Assembly: GCA_947488435.1 (NCBI GenBank)
Contig: CANKZG010000001.1
Span: forward strand, 734,308 to 798,307
Reading direction: 5' to 3'
From: an uncultured Flavobacteriaceae bacterium
Lineage (GTDB): Bacteria > Bacteroidota > Bacteroidia > Flavobacteriales > Flavobacteriaceae
DNA: 64,000 nt
A program made the position numbers and the translations under genes. Positions 19,423-24,908 of the stretch are shown piece after piece. The notes below the pieces were generated by a model. The model was not told the origin of the DNA. It was given only the letters and a program-made list of their open reading frames with translations, and ran no database searches. Position 1 is the stretch's first letter. The number at the start of each line of letters is the position of its first letter.

Positions 19423-20433
19423 TCAGAAATATAACTGTGCTGCCTTCGAAAATTTTGTTGCCATCCGTTTACGCAAACGTTCAGGCTGCAATACCTCCAT
19501 GGCCTCTCCAAAACCTAAAATCAGACGTTCCAATTCAAAATTCAATTTCACTTTTATATTAATTTCAACACTTCCATCTTCATTTTCTTTTTCAATAATC
19601 TGTGAATGATGTATAGGTTTAGTCACGACATAAGGAGCATTGTATTTGTCGATCCATAATTTAATATTGGAAGCCCGTTCCCCTTGGTTCACGGTAACAC
19701 CCACAACATCCTTGTAAAAGGTATCTGCATCAAATTCATAATTTGAATAAGAAATAGCGAAATCATAGTCAATCGAAATGATTCGGTCAAGGGCAAGATT
19801 AACTATGCCTTTGTTCTTATTTCCCATTCCTATTAGAAACCATCGGTTGTTAAACTCCTTCAATAAGCAGGGATGGAAAGTAATTACATTGGCAGTAGCA
19901 GCTTTAAAAGACTTGTACTCCACCTTTAAAACCACTTTTTTCTGAATGGCTTGATAGAGTTCGTCAAGCCAATGTAATCCTTTTAGATTCTCGTTCTTAT
20001 CTAGATGAATAATAGATGACTGATGCGTCTTCTCAGTATATACTTTATCTTCTAATCGTTGAATAATTCCACCCAATTCTGAAAACAAAGAAAAGTCTTT
20101 AAACTGCTTTAGCATTTCTACAGTTTCAGAAAGTACATTCATGTCGTTTTCAGTTATGGGGATATCCGTAATGGAATAATCCTCATCTTCGTATTTGTAA
20201 TACTTTCTATCATAAGCAACAATTGGAGCGTTGTAACCTAACTTATCACTTCGCATCAACTGAATATCGAGTTGCACCGTCCGTTTGCTCACATTCACTT
20301 CCCTACCTTCGTATTCATATAAGGCATCTGAACAGGCTTCAATTAAATCATCTAAAGTCCATTGACGGTAGTTGTTTTGAAGGCATTTGTCAATAGTTTT
20401 ATATCGGATTAGGGCGTTTTTGTTGAGGGCCAT
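19423..20433 (-). CDS. HTH + WYL-domain transcriptional regulator (recalled by resemblance)
   Basis: 336 aa; N-terminus MALNKNALIRYKTIDKCLQN...WTLDDLIEACSDAL...VSKRTVQLDIQLMRS matches my recollection of the winged-HTH N-terminus of Bacteroidetes WYL-domain proteins, followed by a ligand-binding-like middle region; co-operonic with the HD protein (1-nt overlap). Confidence 0.55.
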   Translation of the reverse strand: MALNKNALIRYKTIDKCLQNNYRQWTLDDLIEACSDALYEYEGREVNVSKRTVQLDIQLMRSDKLGYNAPIVAYDRKYYKYEDEDYSITDIPITENDMNVLSETVEMLKQFKDFSLFSELGGIIQRLEDKVYTEKTHQSSIIHLDKNENLKGLHWLDELYQAIQKKVVLKVEYKSFKAATANVITFHPCLLKEFNNRWFLIGMGNKNKGIVNLALDRIISIDYDFAISYSNYEFDADTFYKDVVGVTVNQGERASNIKLWIDKYNAPYVVTKPIHHSQIIEKENEDGSVEINIKVKLNFELERLILGFGEAMEVLQPERLRKRMATKFSKAAQLYF

Positions 20434-21047
20434 TATAATGTATTTAGTTCATTGTACAAATTTGCTCTTGCCTGTTTTTCAAAAGTGGATTGAAAACCCT
20501 TAGTTTGATAAATTGTGTTCTTGTCTAAAAAGTGATGAAGTACTTTCTTTCGTCCTTTACGATACATAATACCGGGAATTTTAGCATACTCTTTTCTAAT
20601 CTTCAGAGCATAATCTTGGTATACCTCTTCGGACTGTCCTAAAATTGCTAAATCAAAGTCTATTAACAATTTCTCATCATTCGATTTGCCATTATGGTGT
20701 TTCGTACAAAGAATAAGTGCTTCAATTCGTTGAATTCCATCTACATCAAATCCAATATCTTGTAATACCTGATTGGCTTTTATTGCACTTTTCTCCTCGT
20801 TATCCTTTTTCCAAATACTATAGACAAAATCATGATAGTAAATAGCTAAAAGCATCTCTTCAGTATTTTCGATATCATCTTTGAACTTATCGAAATAGCC
20901 ATAGAGTTCGGTAAGGTGATCTAGATTGTGGTATTTTCGAAACTTTTGTCCATAAGCGCCAGCTAGTTCATTCCATAAAGCGGCAACTTCATTTTCCGTT
21001 GGTACATATTTAGAGAAAATCTTGGCGTGTCTTTCTTTTAAGTCCAT
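20433..21047 (-). CDS. HD-domain metal-dependent phosphohydrolase (putative RNA-end-processing enzyme)
   Basis: 204 aa; H...LDH...YYHD motif pattern (YHNLDHLTELY, AIYYHDFVY) consistent with an HD fold. Confidence 0.45.
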   Translation of the reverse strand: MDLKERHAKIFSKYVPTENEVAALWNELAGAYGQKFRKYHNLDHLTELYGYFDKFKDDIENTEEMLLAIYYHDFVYSIWKKDNEEKSAIKANQVLQDIGFDVDGIQRIEALILCTKHHNGKSNDEKLLIDFDLAILGQSEEVYQDYALKIRKEYAKIPGIMYRKGRKKVLHHFLDKNTIYQTKGFQSTFEKQARANLYNELNTL

Positions 21048-21083
21048 AGTGTATTTGACTTAAAATTACAAGAACTCAACTAA

Positions 21084-21104
21084 CTACGCAAAATAATTGC
21101 GTAG
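21084..21104. promoter_or_regulatory. perfect 7-7 palindrome CTACGCA-aaataat-TGCGTAG in the divergent HD-WYL / NTase-rtcB promoter region (copy 1 of 3)
   Basis: Read directly from the sequence; arms are exact reverse complements; see copies at 22930 and 30414. Confidence 0.45.
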
Positions 21105-21136
21105 TACATCATCAAATTTGTATCATAATTTTAGAA

Positions 21137-21874
21137 ATGATGAAAAGTAAACTTAAAAATCTAGCAACCGACAAGAAAGTAGACATACTGTTTGCTTGTG
21201 AATCTGGAAGTAGGGCCTGGGACTTTGCTTCCCCAGATAGTGATTTTGATGTTAGATTCGTATATACACATCCAATAGACTGGTATTTGTCAATCTCGGA
21301 AAAACAAGATACCATCGATATAATGGATGGTGATTTTGATGCAGTCGGTTGGGAACTCAGAAAGAAGCTACGCTTACTTAAAAAGTCGAACGTACCTGCA
21401 TTGGAGCATTTATTTTCACCTATAATTTATATTGAAGAAAGTTCATCCATTAAGGAACTGCGAGCGATAGCGAAAGATTGCTTTTCTCCTGTAGCTTGTA
21501 TGTATCACTATTTAAGTATGAGCAAAAAATATGAAGAAAAACTGACTGGTGAAACTGTAAAACTAAAGAGTTTGTTTTATGCATTGCGAACAGCTTTGGC
21601 GGGCAAGTGGATACTTGAACACAATACGATGCCACCTGTTGTTTTTAGCAAGATGTTATCTCTTATAAAAAGGGATGAGGCTGACGAAATAAGACACTTG
21701 ATGACTATAAAATCGGAGAATAACGAAAGTTATTTACATTCCAGAAATGAGAAAGTCGTAAACCTTATAGCAAGTGTTTTAGTTGTTAATGAAAAGTTTG
21801 CAAAATCGCTTTCGGGTGGGAAACCTGATACTGATAGAATAGATAGTTTTTTATATAACACTTTGACCAAATGA
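21137..21874 (+). CDS. DNA-polymerase-beta-superfamily nucleotidyltransferase, most likely the RtcB-associated PF10127 (RlaP-like) family
   Basis: 245 aa; GSRAWDFASPDSDFDVRF = G[SG]-x9-13-DxD nucleotidyltransferase motif. Confidence 0.6.
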   Translation: MMKSKLKNLATDKKVDILFACESGSRAWDFASPDSDFDVRFVYTHPIDWYLSISEKQDTIDIMDGDFDAVGWELRKKLRLLKKSNVPALEHLFSPIIYIEESSSIKELRAIAKDCFSPVACMYHYLSMSKKYEEKLTGETVKLKSLFYALRTALAGKWILEHNTMPPVVFSKMLSLIKRDEADEIRHLMTIKSENNESYLHSRNEKVVNLIASVLVVNEKFAKSLSGGKPDTDRIDSFLYNTLTK

Positions 21875-22923: not shown

Positions 22924-22929
22924 ATTTTA

Positions 22930-22950
22930 CTACGCAAAATAATTGCGCAC
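22930..22950. promoter_or_regulatory. palindrome copy 2 (CTACGCA-aaataat-TGCGCAC, slightly degenerate) between NTase-2 and rtcB
   Basis: 19/21 identical to the copy at 21084. Confidence 0.35.
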
Positions 22951-23052
22951 ATGAGTCGCAAGTTTGTACCGGAATCATAAAGAAGCCGGTTCGCCGACTT
23001 CATGTAGTGCCCCGTCGAACGTTGGAGTCGGTGGGGCTAATTAAAAGAAATT

Positions 23053-24441
23053 ATGAAAAACAAAGTAAACATTACCGGAAATGAATTAATCGCAATGGGC
23101 TTCAAATCAGGAAAATGGATTCCTGAAGCCTTGGCACATATCAATACCAACCAATTACAAGGAGATCCTCTATTAAACTACTTGGAACAATTTCGTCCAG
23201 GACCCATCGTGGGTTTACATTCGGAAACTATGCCATATTCTGTGAATATTAAAGCGGAAAACGAATTGGAGGAAAGCAATGTAAACTCCGTATTGGAATC
23301 TATGGATATTTTGATGCGCACACCTACCCTCGTTGATGGGGCTGTGATGCCAGATGCTTGTCCGGCTGGACCTAAAGGAACTATTCCCGTTGGCGGAGTT
23401 GTCGCCGCTAAGAATGCCATTCACCCAGGTATGCATAGTGCTGATATCTGCTGCTCGGTGATGTTGACTGATTTTGGTTCAGCTGACCCAAAGGATGTCT
23501 TGAATGCCGCACATGCCAGTACACATTTTGGCCCTGGTGGACGAGATAGAAATGCCCAGTATCGATTTCCTGCGGAATTGTTAGGAGCATTTGAAAGCAA
23601 TTATTTCCTAAGAGATCATCAAATGATACAGATTGCGCGAACACATTTGGGAACGCAAGGTGATGGCAACCATTTCTTGTTTGTGGGTCTTTCCAAAGAA
23701 ACGGGAAACACTATGTTGATTACTCATCATGGTTCGCGTGGTCCTGGTGCTCGTTTGTACACCAAAGGGATGAAAATTGCCGAACGTTTCCGACAAGAAC
23801 TTTCTCCAGAAACCTTAAAACAAAATGCATGGATTCCCTTTGATACTGAAGAAGGTGAAAACTATTGGGATGCTTTGCAAATCATAAGAGCATGGACAAA
23901 GAAGAACCATGAAGTTATTCATGATGCTACATTGGAAGCGCTGGGAGTCAAAATTGAGAACCGTTTTTGGAACGAACATAATTTTGTATTCCAAGATGAT
24001 GATATATTTTATCACGCAAAAGGCGCTACACCTTTGGATGCCAAATTTATGCCAGATATTACGGGTCCAAGATTGATTCCGTTGAACATGGCCGAGCCTG
24101 TATTAATAGTTGATGGAAATACTACAGCAACAAATTTAGGTTTTGCGCCTCACGGAGCAGGTCGAAACATGAGTAGAACCCAGCATAAGAAAAACAAAGC
24201 TGAGTTCACCAATGAAGAAGTATTCTTTGAAGAAACCAGAGGATTGGATGTACGTTTCTTCTCAAATGAGATTGATGTTTCCGAATTGCCTAGTGCCTAT
24301 AAGAATGCAGCCACGGTTAGAAACCAAATGGACGAGTTTGGATTAGGAAAAGTTCAAGATGAAGTGATGCCTTATGGCTGTATCATGGCTGGAGATTGGA
24401 TGAAGAATGCACCTTGGAGGAAAAGAAGAAAGAAAAGATGA
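23053..24441 (+). CDS. rtcB: RtcB-family RNA 3'-phosphate/5'-OH ligase (paralog 1)
   Basis: 462 aa; RtcB hallmark motifs [37 protein letters not shown]. Confidence 0.85.
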
Positions 24442-24908
24442 GACTAATTGAAAGATATATTATAAGGTTATTGACTGGCTCGTTTTCAAAATCAGATTTT
24501 GAAAATGAGCTATATCAAGAACACTATGTTGCCAAAATGTCTGAGGACAAGCTTATAGAAAATCTTATCGATATAAATTTTAAGGATAGGTTCTGGAAAG
24601 CAAAACTTAAAGTTATAGCCACAGAACATTTTGGTAAGGATAAATTTTTAAAAACCTTAATAAAATATCAATCCTTAAGAATACTAGAATCTTCGGTAAA
24701 GGAGGAGGTGTTTGAAATAAATGGACAACTAGCCAGCAAGAATATCGACTATGATTATGAAAACGGACATTTGATGAAGTTTTATGTTTTAGATGATGAA
24801 ATAGACTATACTAGATGTGGTTATGGTCATCGGTTGGAGGAGGAAATATTTAAGGAAATTAAGTTGGCGGCTAGAGAATTTCTAGACCAATTTCCTATTG
24901 AGAACTAA
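24438..24908 (+). CDS. hypothetical protein translationally coupled to rtcB (start either 24438 via ATGA overlap, or 24396)
   Basis: 156-170 aa, acidic/helical, no known motif (no archease HTAD motif). Confidence 0.45.

Follow-up and report, generated by a model that had tools for sequence, protein, structure and literature searches.

How the repair of broken RNA is switched on is known in detail only for the RtcR regulator of enterobacteria and in outline for the TrcR regulator of cyanobacteria, and the question is raised again by a locus in which a gene for the RNA ligase RtcB lies beside a gene for a WYL-type transcription regulator. The locus is part of a 64,000-nucleotide (nt) stretch of DNA from an uncultured Flavobacteriaceae bacterium (assembly GCA_947488435.1, contig CANKZG010000001.1, positions 734,308 to 798,307), hereafter the window, whose first letter is position 1. 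The region at 19423-24908 probably forms the regulatory core and the first effector unit of an RNA-damage-response regulon of Flavobacteriia and some other Bacteroidota. A preliminary description of this region had proposed a module of an HD hydrolase, a WYL-type regulator, two RlaP-like nucleotidyltransferases, RtcB and a protein of 156 amino acids (aa). Its six open reading frames (ORFs) were all recovered from the ORF listing of the window, and the three overlaps and the palindrome that it had claimed were read from the sequence: the HD-like and WYL genes have one base in common (TAATG), and the two RlaP genes overlap by ATGA, as do rtcB1 and the gene of the 156-aa protein. The two RlaP genes and rtcB1 are separated by 129 nt, and the divergent intergenic region between the HD-like gene and RlaP1 measures 89 nt. 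The genes of that module stand, and what it had overlooked is a second operator before rtcB, a structured leader and a larger island (RtcB2-PrfH-TPR, an array of 15 tRNA genes, a third operator, tRNA-like RNAs and a Band-7 gene), the flagged module being the left end of an RNA-repair island of about 13 kb. The nearest protein relatives are from Maribacter, the ligase being 96% identical, which makes the source a Maribacter-like flavobacterium. The features on which the argument rests are the following.

19423-20433, minus strand: WYL-WCX transcription regulator of 336 aa with a putative N-terminal HTH, second gene of the HD-like/WYL operon
20433-21047, minus strand: HD-like protein of 204 aa with an invariant motif, a putative metal-dependent phosphohydrolase and accessory
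21084-21104: putative operator O1, palindrome CTACGCA-AAATAAT-TGCGTAG, in the divergent region between HD-like/WYL and RlaP
21113-21120, plus strand: -7 box-like CAAATTTG of the RlaP promoter, at +30 to +37 from the operator start
21137-21874, plus strand: RlaP1, full-length RlaP nucleotidyltransferase of 245 aa (PF10127)
21871-22923, plus strand: RlaP2, RlaP nucleotidyltransferase core with a C-terminal region of about 220 aa, 350 aa in all (PF10127)
22930-22950: putative operator O2 CTACGCAAAATAATTGCGCAC before rtcB1, an exact 18-mer repeat of O1
22959-22966, plus strand: -7 box-like CAAGTTTG of the rtcB1 promoter, with TTTG at fixed spacing
22970-23052, plus strand: structured 5' leader of GGAATCA, a P1 hairpin, GTAG and a P2 hairpin (arms 23009-23018 and 23028-23037, loop ACGTTGGAG)
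23053-24441, plus strand: RtcB1, divergent RtcB-family RNA ligase of 462 aa (PF01139)
24438-24908, plus strand: all-helical protein of 156 aa in the variable slot after rtcB1, with its ATG at 24438
30414-30434: putative operator O3 CTACGCATAATCATTGCGTAA, 20 nt after the last tRNA, followed by CAATTTTG at equal spacing

The assignment of the 336-aa protein as a WYL-type regulator was borne out by profile search, with both WYL (PF13280, residues 155-221, 37.7 bits against a cut-off of 21.8, E = 2.1e-9) and WCX (PF25583, residues 256-331, 57.4 bits against a cut-off of 23.9, E = 1.9e-15) above the curated cut-offs. The protein also matched the PADLOC WYL model (E = 3.2e-26), and its N-terminus gave a weak match to HTH_11 (residues 45-79, E = 0.032, 14.5 bits against a cut-off of 25). 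PafC was the sole match among solved structures, with an E value of 0.42.

The palindrome was found to recur in the window. The 18-mer CTACGCAAAATAATTGCG is present in two exact copies, in O1 and O2, and in a third copy with two mismatches, O3, for an expectation of 0.10 in 64 kb; no further copy was found in the window. Each of the three is followed, at +30 to +37 from the start of the motif, by an xAAxTTTG box that we take to be the Bacteroidota -7 element (TAnnTTTG). At none of the three promoters is TTG found at the canonical distance of 19-21 nt upstream of the -7 box, and the palindrome fills that space, its centre lying at about -33 if transcription starts near the conserved GGAATCA. 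This geometry would suit a repressor as well as an activator of the PafBC/DriD type standing in for the upstream promoter element. Activation has a slight edge over de-repression, since a -33 TTG at the right spacing is missing from the promoters. A sigma-70 promoter and terminator scan performed no better on the window than on shuffled sequence, the model being unsuited to Bacteroidota.

The conservation of this arrangement was evaluated in 80 genome loci with 10-kb flanks and two metagenome loci, together representing many genera, onto which the window proteins were mapped by tblastn, a homolog being called present at 60% coverage or more and an operator when no more than two of its 12 specified positions were mismatched. 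Of the 82 loci, 67 have a WYL homolog no further than 10 kb from RtcB1, and in 31 the two are directly divergent; the other counts are those for TPR (43), PrfH (31), Band-7 (23), the RlaP pair (19) and the HD-like gene (9). When the 260 nt before RtcB1, the 200 nt before the WYL gene and the 1.3 kb before Band-7 were examined, the operator was present in 69 of 81, 51 of 67 and 19 of 23 loci, respectively, where about 0.006 sites per 240-nt stretch are expected by chance, as estimated from base composition. The aligned sites (aCTACGCAAAAnnATTGCGyA, 10-11 nt, TTTG; about 60 loci) are nearly constant from Maribacter to Saprospiraceae and Crocinitomix. The operator also appears at other units of rearranged islands: before PrfH/TPR and Band-7 in loci of the Psychroserpens/Winogradskyella type, before a PNKP-type HAD phosphatase in Tenacibaculum mesophilum and before RlaP and RtcB separately in Aquimarina sp. 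BL5, and an O3-type operator follows the tRNA array in seven loci (L001, L004, L013, L037, L056, L062 and L065). The closest relative on a long contig, L001, has WYL directly divergent from RtcB1 and lacks both the HD-like gene and the RlaP pair. The core is therefore taken to be WYL, the operator and RtcB1, and an insertion of the HD-like and RlaP genes between WYL and RtcB1 would explain the duplicated operator. As judged from this conserved synteny and the conserved operator, the proposed control of rtcB by a WYL regulator, a route other than that of RtcR, is strongly backed, and the link between regulator and operator appears well supported.

The identity of the 462-aa protein as RtcB was confirmed by its match to PF01139 (127 bits) and by the retention of every catalytic residue: D131, C134, N206, H207, H225, H309 and H367 are invariant in an alignment of 19 subfamily members with the canonical paralog RtcB2. 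The roles of these metal- and GMP-binding residues, including the nucleophilic His of HGAGR, are assumed to be those of the corresponding residues in Pyrococcus horikoshii RtcB. RtcB1 scored below the cut-offs of the NCBIfam equivalogs NF007153 (E. coli-type RtcB; 75.8 bits against 407) and TIGR03073 (PrfH-linked; 50.7 against 271.8), and its best match among solved RtcB structures reached only E of about 1e-13. Its close relatives number more than 6000, mostly from Flavobacteriia, and are 70-96% identical across Flavobacteriaceae. By these comparisons RtcB1 is a separate RtcB subfamily. It is only 27% identical to RtcB2, which is a different ligase and belongs to the RtcB2-PrfH module outside the flagged coordinates.

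Some further details of the ligase were noted. RtcB1 has MPDACP (residues 99-104; window 23350-23365) where RtcB2 has MPDAHSGYG, and the Cys is nearly invariant across the RtcB1 subfamily, so that a metal or nucleotide site is possibly changed. Both paralogs begin with a segment of about 40 aa, ITGxELIxLGF... (window 23053-23170 and 25577-25700). In RtcB1 it gave a weak match, below the cut-off, to tRNA_NucTran2_2 (PF13735, E = 8.5e-4), a domain found at the C-terminus of CCA-adding enzymes, and one RtcB1 relative (P0066) also bears that Pfam label. The segment is possibly a tRNA-binding module.

The 5' region of rtcB1, of about 85 nt, is conserved in about half of the loci as GGAATCA-AAA, a variable P1, GTAG and a 10-bp P2 with the loop consensus A-C-R-(n)-R-G-G-A. 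Compensatory changes were detected by RNAalifold at eight of the ten P2 pairs. A covariance model built from 27 sequences recovered 57 leader copies in 1.64 Mb; on the alignment fitted to this model, 99.6% of cells pair and nine of the ten pairs covary, a level seen in 0 of 500 shuffles and approached by no slid register. The copies lie about 39 nt after the operator, before rtcB1 and, in several genomes, before the tRNA-like/Band-7 unit, and since both units are preceded by it, the leader belongs to the promoter module and not to one gene. In the window the O3 unit carries a diverged leader (GTAATAG followed by a CCCTGCAGC...GCTGCAGGG hairpin), and no leader hairpin is found at the RlaP promoter. 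The leader has no U-run and is therefore no obvious terminator, and the rtcB1 copy had no Rfam match in a scan of 18-29.5 kb. It is a candidate new cis-regulatory motif.

The P2 stem reads GCyCC...GGrGC with a loop ACGnnGGAG (23009-23037), which places a Shine-Dalgarno-like AGGAG about 35 nt before the ATG, and it loosely resembles helix 95 of 23S rRNA (GCUCCUAGUACGAGAGGACCGGAG) and positions 1494-1505 of 16S rRNA (GUCGUAACAAGG), possibly by chance. Mimicry of the 23S sarcin-ricin loop or of 16S 1494-1505, or a display of the AGGAG, is not relied on, as the resemblance is short, the loop varies and several targets were compared.

The RlaP assignments made previously were likewise upheld by profile search. 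RlaP1 matches PF10127 along almost its full length (236 bits, spanning positions 6-248 of 249), and RlaP2 with residues 10-127 (100 bits; profile positions 17-140 of 249 only), its C-terminal region of about 220 aa having no Pfam match. The two nucleotidyltransferase cores are 38% identical over 80 aa (E = 4e-12), as expected of the paralogs that had been claimed, and the pol-beta GS...DxD motif is aligned in both (ESGSRAW..DSDFDV in RlaP1, ISGSRAY..SSDTDI in RlaP2). Neither protein matched a solved structure. The pair lies directly upstream of rtcB1 in the window and upstream or downstream of RtcB1 elsewhere, and both members co-occur in all 19 loci that have either. The RlaP enzymes of Pseudomonas add one or two nucleoside monophosphates to RNA 3'-OH ends and were proposed to undo the damage of nucleotide-excising ribotoxins (PMC12776372).

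In the HD-like protein, H40, H44, H72-D73, H118, D130 and D132 are invariant among eight homologs of 39-50% identity, and its UniRef 90%-cluster mate is named 'Metal-dependent HD superfamily phosphohydrolase'. An HD enzyme is thus a plausible but unproven assignment at the level of motifs. Its gene is always found on the strand opposite to RtcB1. The gene is, like the RlaP pair, an optional accessory outside the core.

From these observations the following course of events is proposed. A dimer of the HTH-WYL-WCX regulator would bind the 21-bp palindrome aCTACGCA-N7-TGCGTAg, as its conservation suggests, and would thereby occupy the -33 region of at least three promoters in the window, those of the RlaP pair, of rtcB1 with its downstream gene and of the tRNA-like RNAs with Band-7; its own HD-like/WYL operon is probably also controlled through the divergent O1. 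By analogy, the WYL domain would sense a product of RNA breakage and switch these promoters on, a signal suggested by the single-stranded nucleic acid to which other WYL regulators respond and by the tRNA fragments that RtcR detects; RNA fragments are favoured as the ligand because every target acts on RNA. RtcB1 would then join 2',3'-cyclic-phosphate or 3'-phosphate ends to 5'-OH ends, RlaP1 and RlaP2, where present, may add back the one or two nucleotides that a trimmed 3' end has lost, and the HD-like enzyme may interconvert the ends, either removing the 2',3'-cyclic phosphate or 3'-phosphate for RlaP or regenerating the 3'-phosphate for RtcB. The leader hairpin could provide a second layer of control after initiation. 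The full combination, in which a WYL sensor of damaged RNA drives a regulon of -33 operators, the RlaP pair is heteromeric, the leader is a checkpoint and the 156-aa family is a new end-processing accessory, is put forward only tentatively.

Several observations weigh against this reading. The connection of the WYL protein with the palindrome is drawn from adjacency and conservation, which would also suit another factor, and no WYL homolog was found in 15 of the 82 loci, six of which end at contig ends. The ligands of the characterised WYL transcription factors in the literature found are single-stranded DNA or c-di-GMP, not RNA. The promoters of RtcB2-PrfH and of the tRNA array differ in the window from the type shared by rtcB1 and Band-7 and carry a different palindrome, so the island is not one uniform regulon. 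Neither the HD-like protein nor seven of its homologs matched the Pfam HD profile (PF01966) at E of 1 or below, no relative with a solved structure was found by sequence or profile, and a single-sequence structure model was too poor for use; the 'HD hydrolase' of the preliminary description is supported at the level of an invariant H..HD..H..D pattern. Finally, the product of RlaP ends in 3'-OH and is no substrate for RtcB, a problem raised in the biochemical work itself (PMC12776372), and an order of action from RlaP to RtcB stays at odds with it. An HD-type phosphoesterase is a candidate for the missing end conversion between the two.

The 156-aa protein, which had been suggested as a new RtcB partner, was found to have a narrower distribution than such a role implies. 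Its ORF is extended by the ORF lister to a TTG at 24396. As previously described, it has no archease signature or recognisable domain, with no Pfam or NCBIfam family match, archease included; a weak PADLOC match to MTase_II (E = 3e-4) was disregarded. Its AlphaFold2 model, with a predicted local distance difference test score of 89.9, is an eight-helix bundle, unlike the alpha/beta fold of archease, and a fold search returned no significant structural neighbour. Relatives numbered three in a first search, 25 in a profile search and 166 in an exhaustive hidden Markov model search of 1.84e9 representative proteins, the named members all belonging to Maribacter, Aquimarina or Tenacibaculum. The invariant positions of the family are mostly hydrophobic or aromatic, and some relatives have extra C-terminal membrane helices. 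All members whose context was read sit in WYL/RNA-repair loci. A spurious ORF was rejected on the grounds of 20-84% identity across three genera and of this constant setting, and the protein appears to be a genuine, lineage-restricted accessory of RNA-repair systems.

A relative directly follows RtcB1 in only nine of the 82 loci, however, and once it stands behind a PNKP-type phosphatase: in T. mesophilum (L083/L084, 7517-8648), WYL is divergent from a 151-aa PNKP-type HAD phosphatase and the next gene encodes the relative, here of 215 aa; one operator lies between WYL and the phosphatase (at 7406) and a second after PrfH-TPR and before Band-7 (at 12509). The ORF is thus for the most part not conserved in orthologous loci, which tells largely against a general partner of RtcB, and this idea, the most speculative element of the preliminary description, is weakened. 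Across the loci the slot after RtcB1 holds more than 20 unrelated genes, many with the identical ATGA overlap. An equally good reading is that the slot proteins are immunity proteins or inhibitors, and the specific proposal that the 156-aa protein and other unrelated small proteins of the slot act in this way against particular RNase toxins, and not as cofactors of RtcB1, is somewhat doubtful. The slot has no description in the literature searched, a body that did not cover the survey of Burroughs and Aravind (2016). In three Maribacter loci (L054, L063 and L068; about 11411-12794) it was observed to hold a 460-aa enzyme of the CCA-adding type, with a PolyA_pol head, an RNA-binding domain and an HD domain, so that a bona fide HD/NTase healing enzyme stands there instead of the 156-aa protein.

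With regard to the ligand, the main rival is that the WYL regulator controls the same promoters and senses single-stranded DNA arising from DNA damage or phage replication, like PafBC, DriD and CapW, so that RNA repair would be switched on within a DNA-damage or anti-phage alarm. In the literature found, single-stranded DNA is bound by all WYL transcription factors whose nucleic-acid ligand is known (PMC9186387, PMC11804915, PMC11662680), the PADLOC WYL models that match the regulator derive from defence contexts, an AbiE pair adjoins the island in L001, and the Rtc operon of Salmonella is reported to be induced in the SOS response through prophage genes (PMC9879122). Nevertheless, the units that bear the operator all act on RNA (RtcB1, RlaP, the PNKP-type phosphatase, tRNA-like RNA/Band-7 and, in some loci, PrfH-TPR), and no DNA-repair gene with an operator was found in the loci read, which makes a single-stranded DNA signal appear rather unlikely.

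The features of the right-hand part of the island are given below.

25577-26968, plus strand: RtcB2, canonical RtcB (PF01139, 282 bits)
27061-27753, plus strand: PrfH of 230 aa, directly after RtcB2 (TIGR03072, 229.4 bits, cut-off 166.65)
27744-28298, plus strand: TPR protein (weak TPR matches)
28970-30393, plus strand: array of 15 tRNA genes (ARAGORN, Rfam)
30910-31110, plus strand: tRNA-like/YrlA-like elements (sub-threshold Rfam matches: YrlA 38.4 bits, tRNA 29 and 28.3 bits)
31451-32551, plus strand: Band-7/slipin protein of 366 aa (Pfam Band_7 on the L001 ortholog; NCBI 'slipin family protein')

The tightly packed array, which follows RtcB2-PrfH-TPR directly, reads Ser, Ser, Cys, Tyr, Trp, Asp, Pro, Glu, Lys, Leu, Leu, Gln, His, Phe, Arg. 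RtcB2-PrfH has a separate promoter type with the palindrome TGATAATCA at 25236, part of a second promoter module that consists of a TGATwATCA palindrome (25236 and 28671), an A/T-rich stretch and TTG-N20-TAnnTTTG (25236-25295 and 28671-28745). The module lies upstream of both RtcB2-PrfH and the tRNA array, and its conservation in about 28 related loci makes a second regulator of the island probable.

A horizontally acquired cassette has been considered in this context, mainly a phage-like one for tRNA supply and anti-defence, in which the array would make up for tRNAs that anticodon nucleases deplete when phages attack and RtcB1 and RlaP would be secondary passengers. Arrays of 7-21 tRNA genes are found alongside RtcB1 in about 20 related loci, RlaP, RtcB and sets of tRNAs co-occur in jumbo phages (PMC7824862), and the surroundings of the island differ between genomes. 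Most loci, on the other hand, have WYL-RtcB1 without an array, the flanks read hold no phage structural or integrase genes, and the G+C content, 0.32-0.41 across the whole window, is similar in the island and the remainder. The cassette, which is improbable as the principal account, would be compatible with a WYL-controlled RNA-damage response and does not exclude it. That the palindrome is the site of another factor or a promoter part, the WYL gene regulating only itself or something else, is very improbable: the second palindrome TGATwATCA speaks for other regulators active in the island, but 51 of 67 loci have the operator in the promoter region of the WYL gene, it moves with that gene through island rearrangements, its form of a 2x6 inverted repeat spaced by 7 nt is suited to a dimeric winged helix-turn-helix (wHTH) protein, and no other regulator gene is conserved beside it.

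A WYL-controlled RNA-damage regulon can be set against several known systems. Like RtcR-RtcB-RtcA of E. coli and Salmonella, it would couple an RtcB ligase to a dedicated ligand-sensing transcription factor encoded by a divergent neighbour. Induction of the Salmonella Rtc system was attributed to damaged tRNA fragments sensed by the CARF domain of RtcR (PMC7790460). RtcR, however, is a CARF/AAA+/sigma-54 activator, whereas here an HTH-WYL-WCX protein would act at a palindrome centred at -33 of a Bacteroidota-type promoter, and RtcB1 is of a divergent subfamily and not of the E. coli type; neither an RtcR (CARF-AAA+-HTH sigma-54 activator) nor an RtcA was found among the proteins scanned (18392-28298). 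The only accepted match to a PADLOC defence-system model was that of the WYL regulator. The Rtc operon of Pseudomonas has a single RlaP inserted (PMC12776372), in contrast to the two paralogs found here.

The closest functional and experimentally defined parallel to this gene set appears to be the TrcR regulon of Anabaena sp. PCC 7120, which serves the response to translational stress (PMC10272220, PMC8421152). There, a single repressor acts through a shared operator on rtcB, on a long array of tRNA genes and on the slipin/Band-7 operon alr0739-alr0740, and translation inhibitors induce the regulon. TrcR, which is unrelated to WYL, is a repressor of the ribbon-helix-helix type whose 8-bp site overlies the -10 box, and its regulon unites the tRNA array with rtcB, whereas the promoters of the tRNA array and RtcB2-PrfH in the window differ from those of rtcB1 and Band-7. 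The regulators PafBC, DriD and CapW/BrxR share the WYL and WCX domains and perhaps the wHTH, palindromic or promoter-embedded sites and the control of a stress or defence regulon together with their own gene; they respond to single-stranded DNA and control DNA-damage or phage-defence genes, whereas all targets here act on RNA, and their sequence relation to the 336-aa protein is remote.

The components of the island are of known kinds, namely RtcB, RlaP, PrfH-RtcB-TPR, tRNA arrays and Band-7 with tRNA-like RNA. According to PMC6514570 and PMC12776372, the survey of Burroughs and Aravind (2016) predicted RlaP beside RNA ligases, PrfH-RtcB-TPR and Band-7 with tRNA-like RNA, and all three components of that RNA-repair 'syntax' have counterparts in the window. 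RtcB2-PrfH repairs colicin-E3-cut ribosomes (PMC9304027, PMC9223846), and the window PrfH shares its length of 230 aa and an adjoining RtcB with the PrfH-CT subfamily of Flavobacteriia (PMC12829566). An rtcB-tied WYL regulator, its operator, a multi-promoter regulon, an obligate RlaP pair and the leader RNA were not found in the literature searched, which did not include the 2016 survey. The locus ties a third, unrelated type of regulator to rtcB across a class of abundant marine bacteria, and the sharply defined binding site makes the question directly testable. If the WYL domain does bind RNA fragments, a sensor domain that is very common and has so far been linked to single-stranded DNA and c-di-GMP would have a wider choice of ligands than was known, and a WYL sensor of damaged RNA would represent a third independent solution to RNA repair induced by RNA damage, after RtcR (CARF/sigma-54) and TrcR (ribbon-helix-helix). 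The locus also pairs RlaP, which makes a 3'-OH, and RtcB, which needs a 3'-phosphate, with a candidate HD-like end converter, the gap that was flagged in RlaP biochemistry.

Several minor observations concern the island and its surroundings. Each TGATwATCA module is followed by a transcribed stretch of about 170-200 nt that ends in a hairpin and a T-run (about 25440-25470 and 28925-28950), after which the genes begin; this perhaps points to an attenuator or a small RNA or peptide. The gaps in the tRNA array at 29554-29639 and 29951-30085 gave no ARAGORN call and contain T-arm-like sequence (30051-30084), and they may be degenerate or interrupted tRNA genes. T-arm-like repeats also occur at 30711 and 30915, ahead of the Band-7 gene, where the Rfam scan of 29.9-31.5 kb gave only the sub-threshold YrlA and tRNA matches; the stretch at 30414-31450 fits the predicted Band-7-associated tRNA-like RNA. 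A 133-aa DUF2452 protein (18392-18793; PF10504, E = 2e-10) is encoded on the strand of the WYL gene and about 630 nt further downstream, beyond an AT-rich stretch without any ORF of 80 aa or more; the protein is probably outside the system, because it is absent from every related locus. In L001, the closest metagenomic relative, an AbiEii/AbiEi toxin-antitoxin pair of the abortive-infection kind (18566-20170) directly adjoins the island after Band-7, and the island may sit in a defence neighbourhood. Lastly, a 6-kb contig labelled as a 'Cyanobacteria bacterium' metagenome-assembled genome (L003, JBCCDM010000390.1) carries WYL, RlaP1, RlaP2 and RtcB1 at 91-95% identity to those of the window and is most likely a mis-binned flavobacterial contig.

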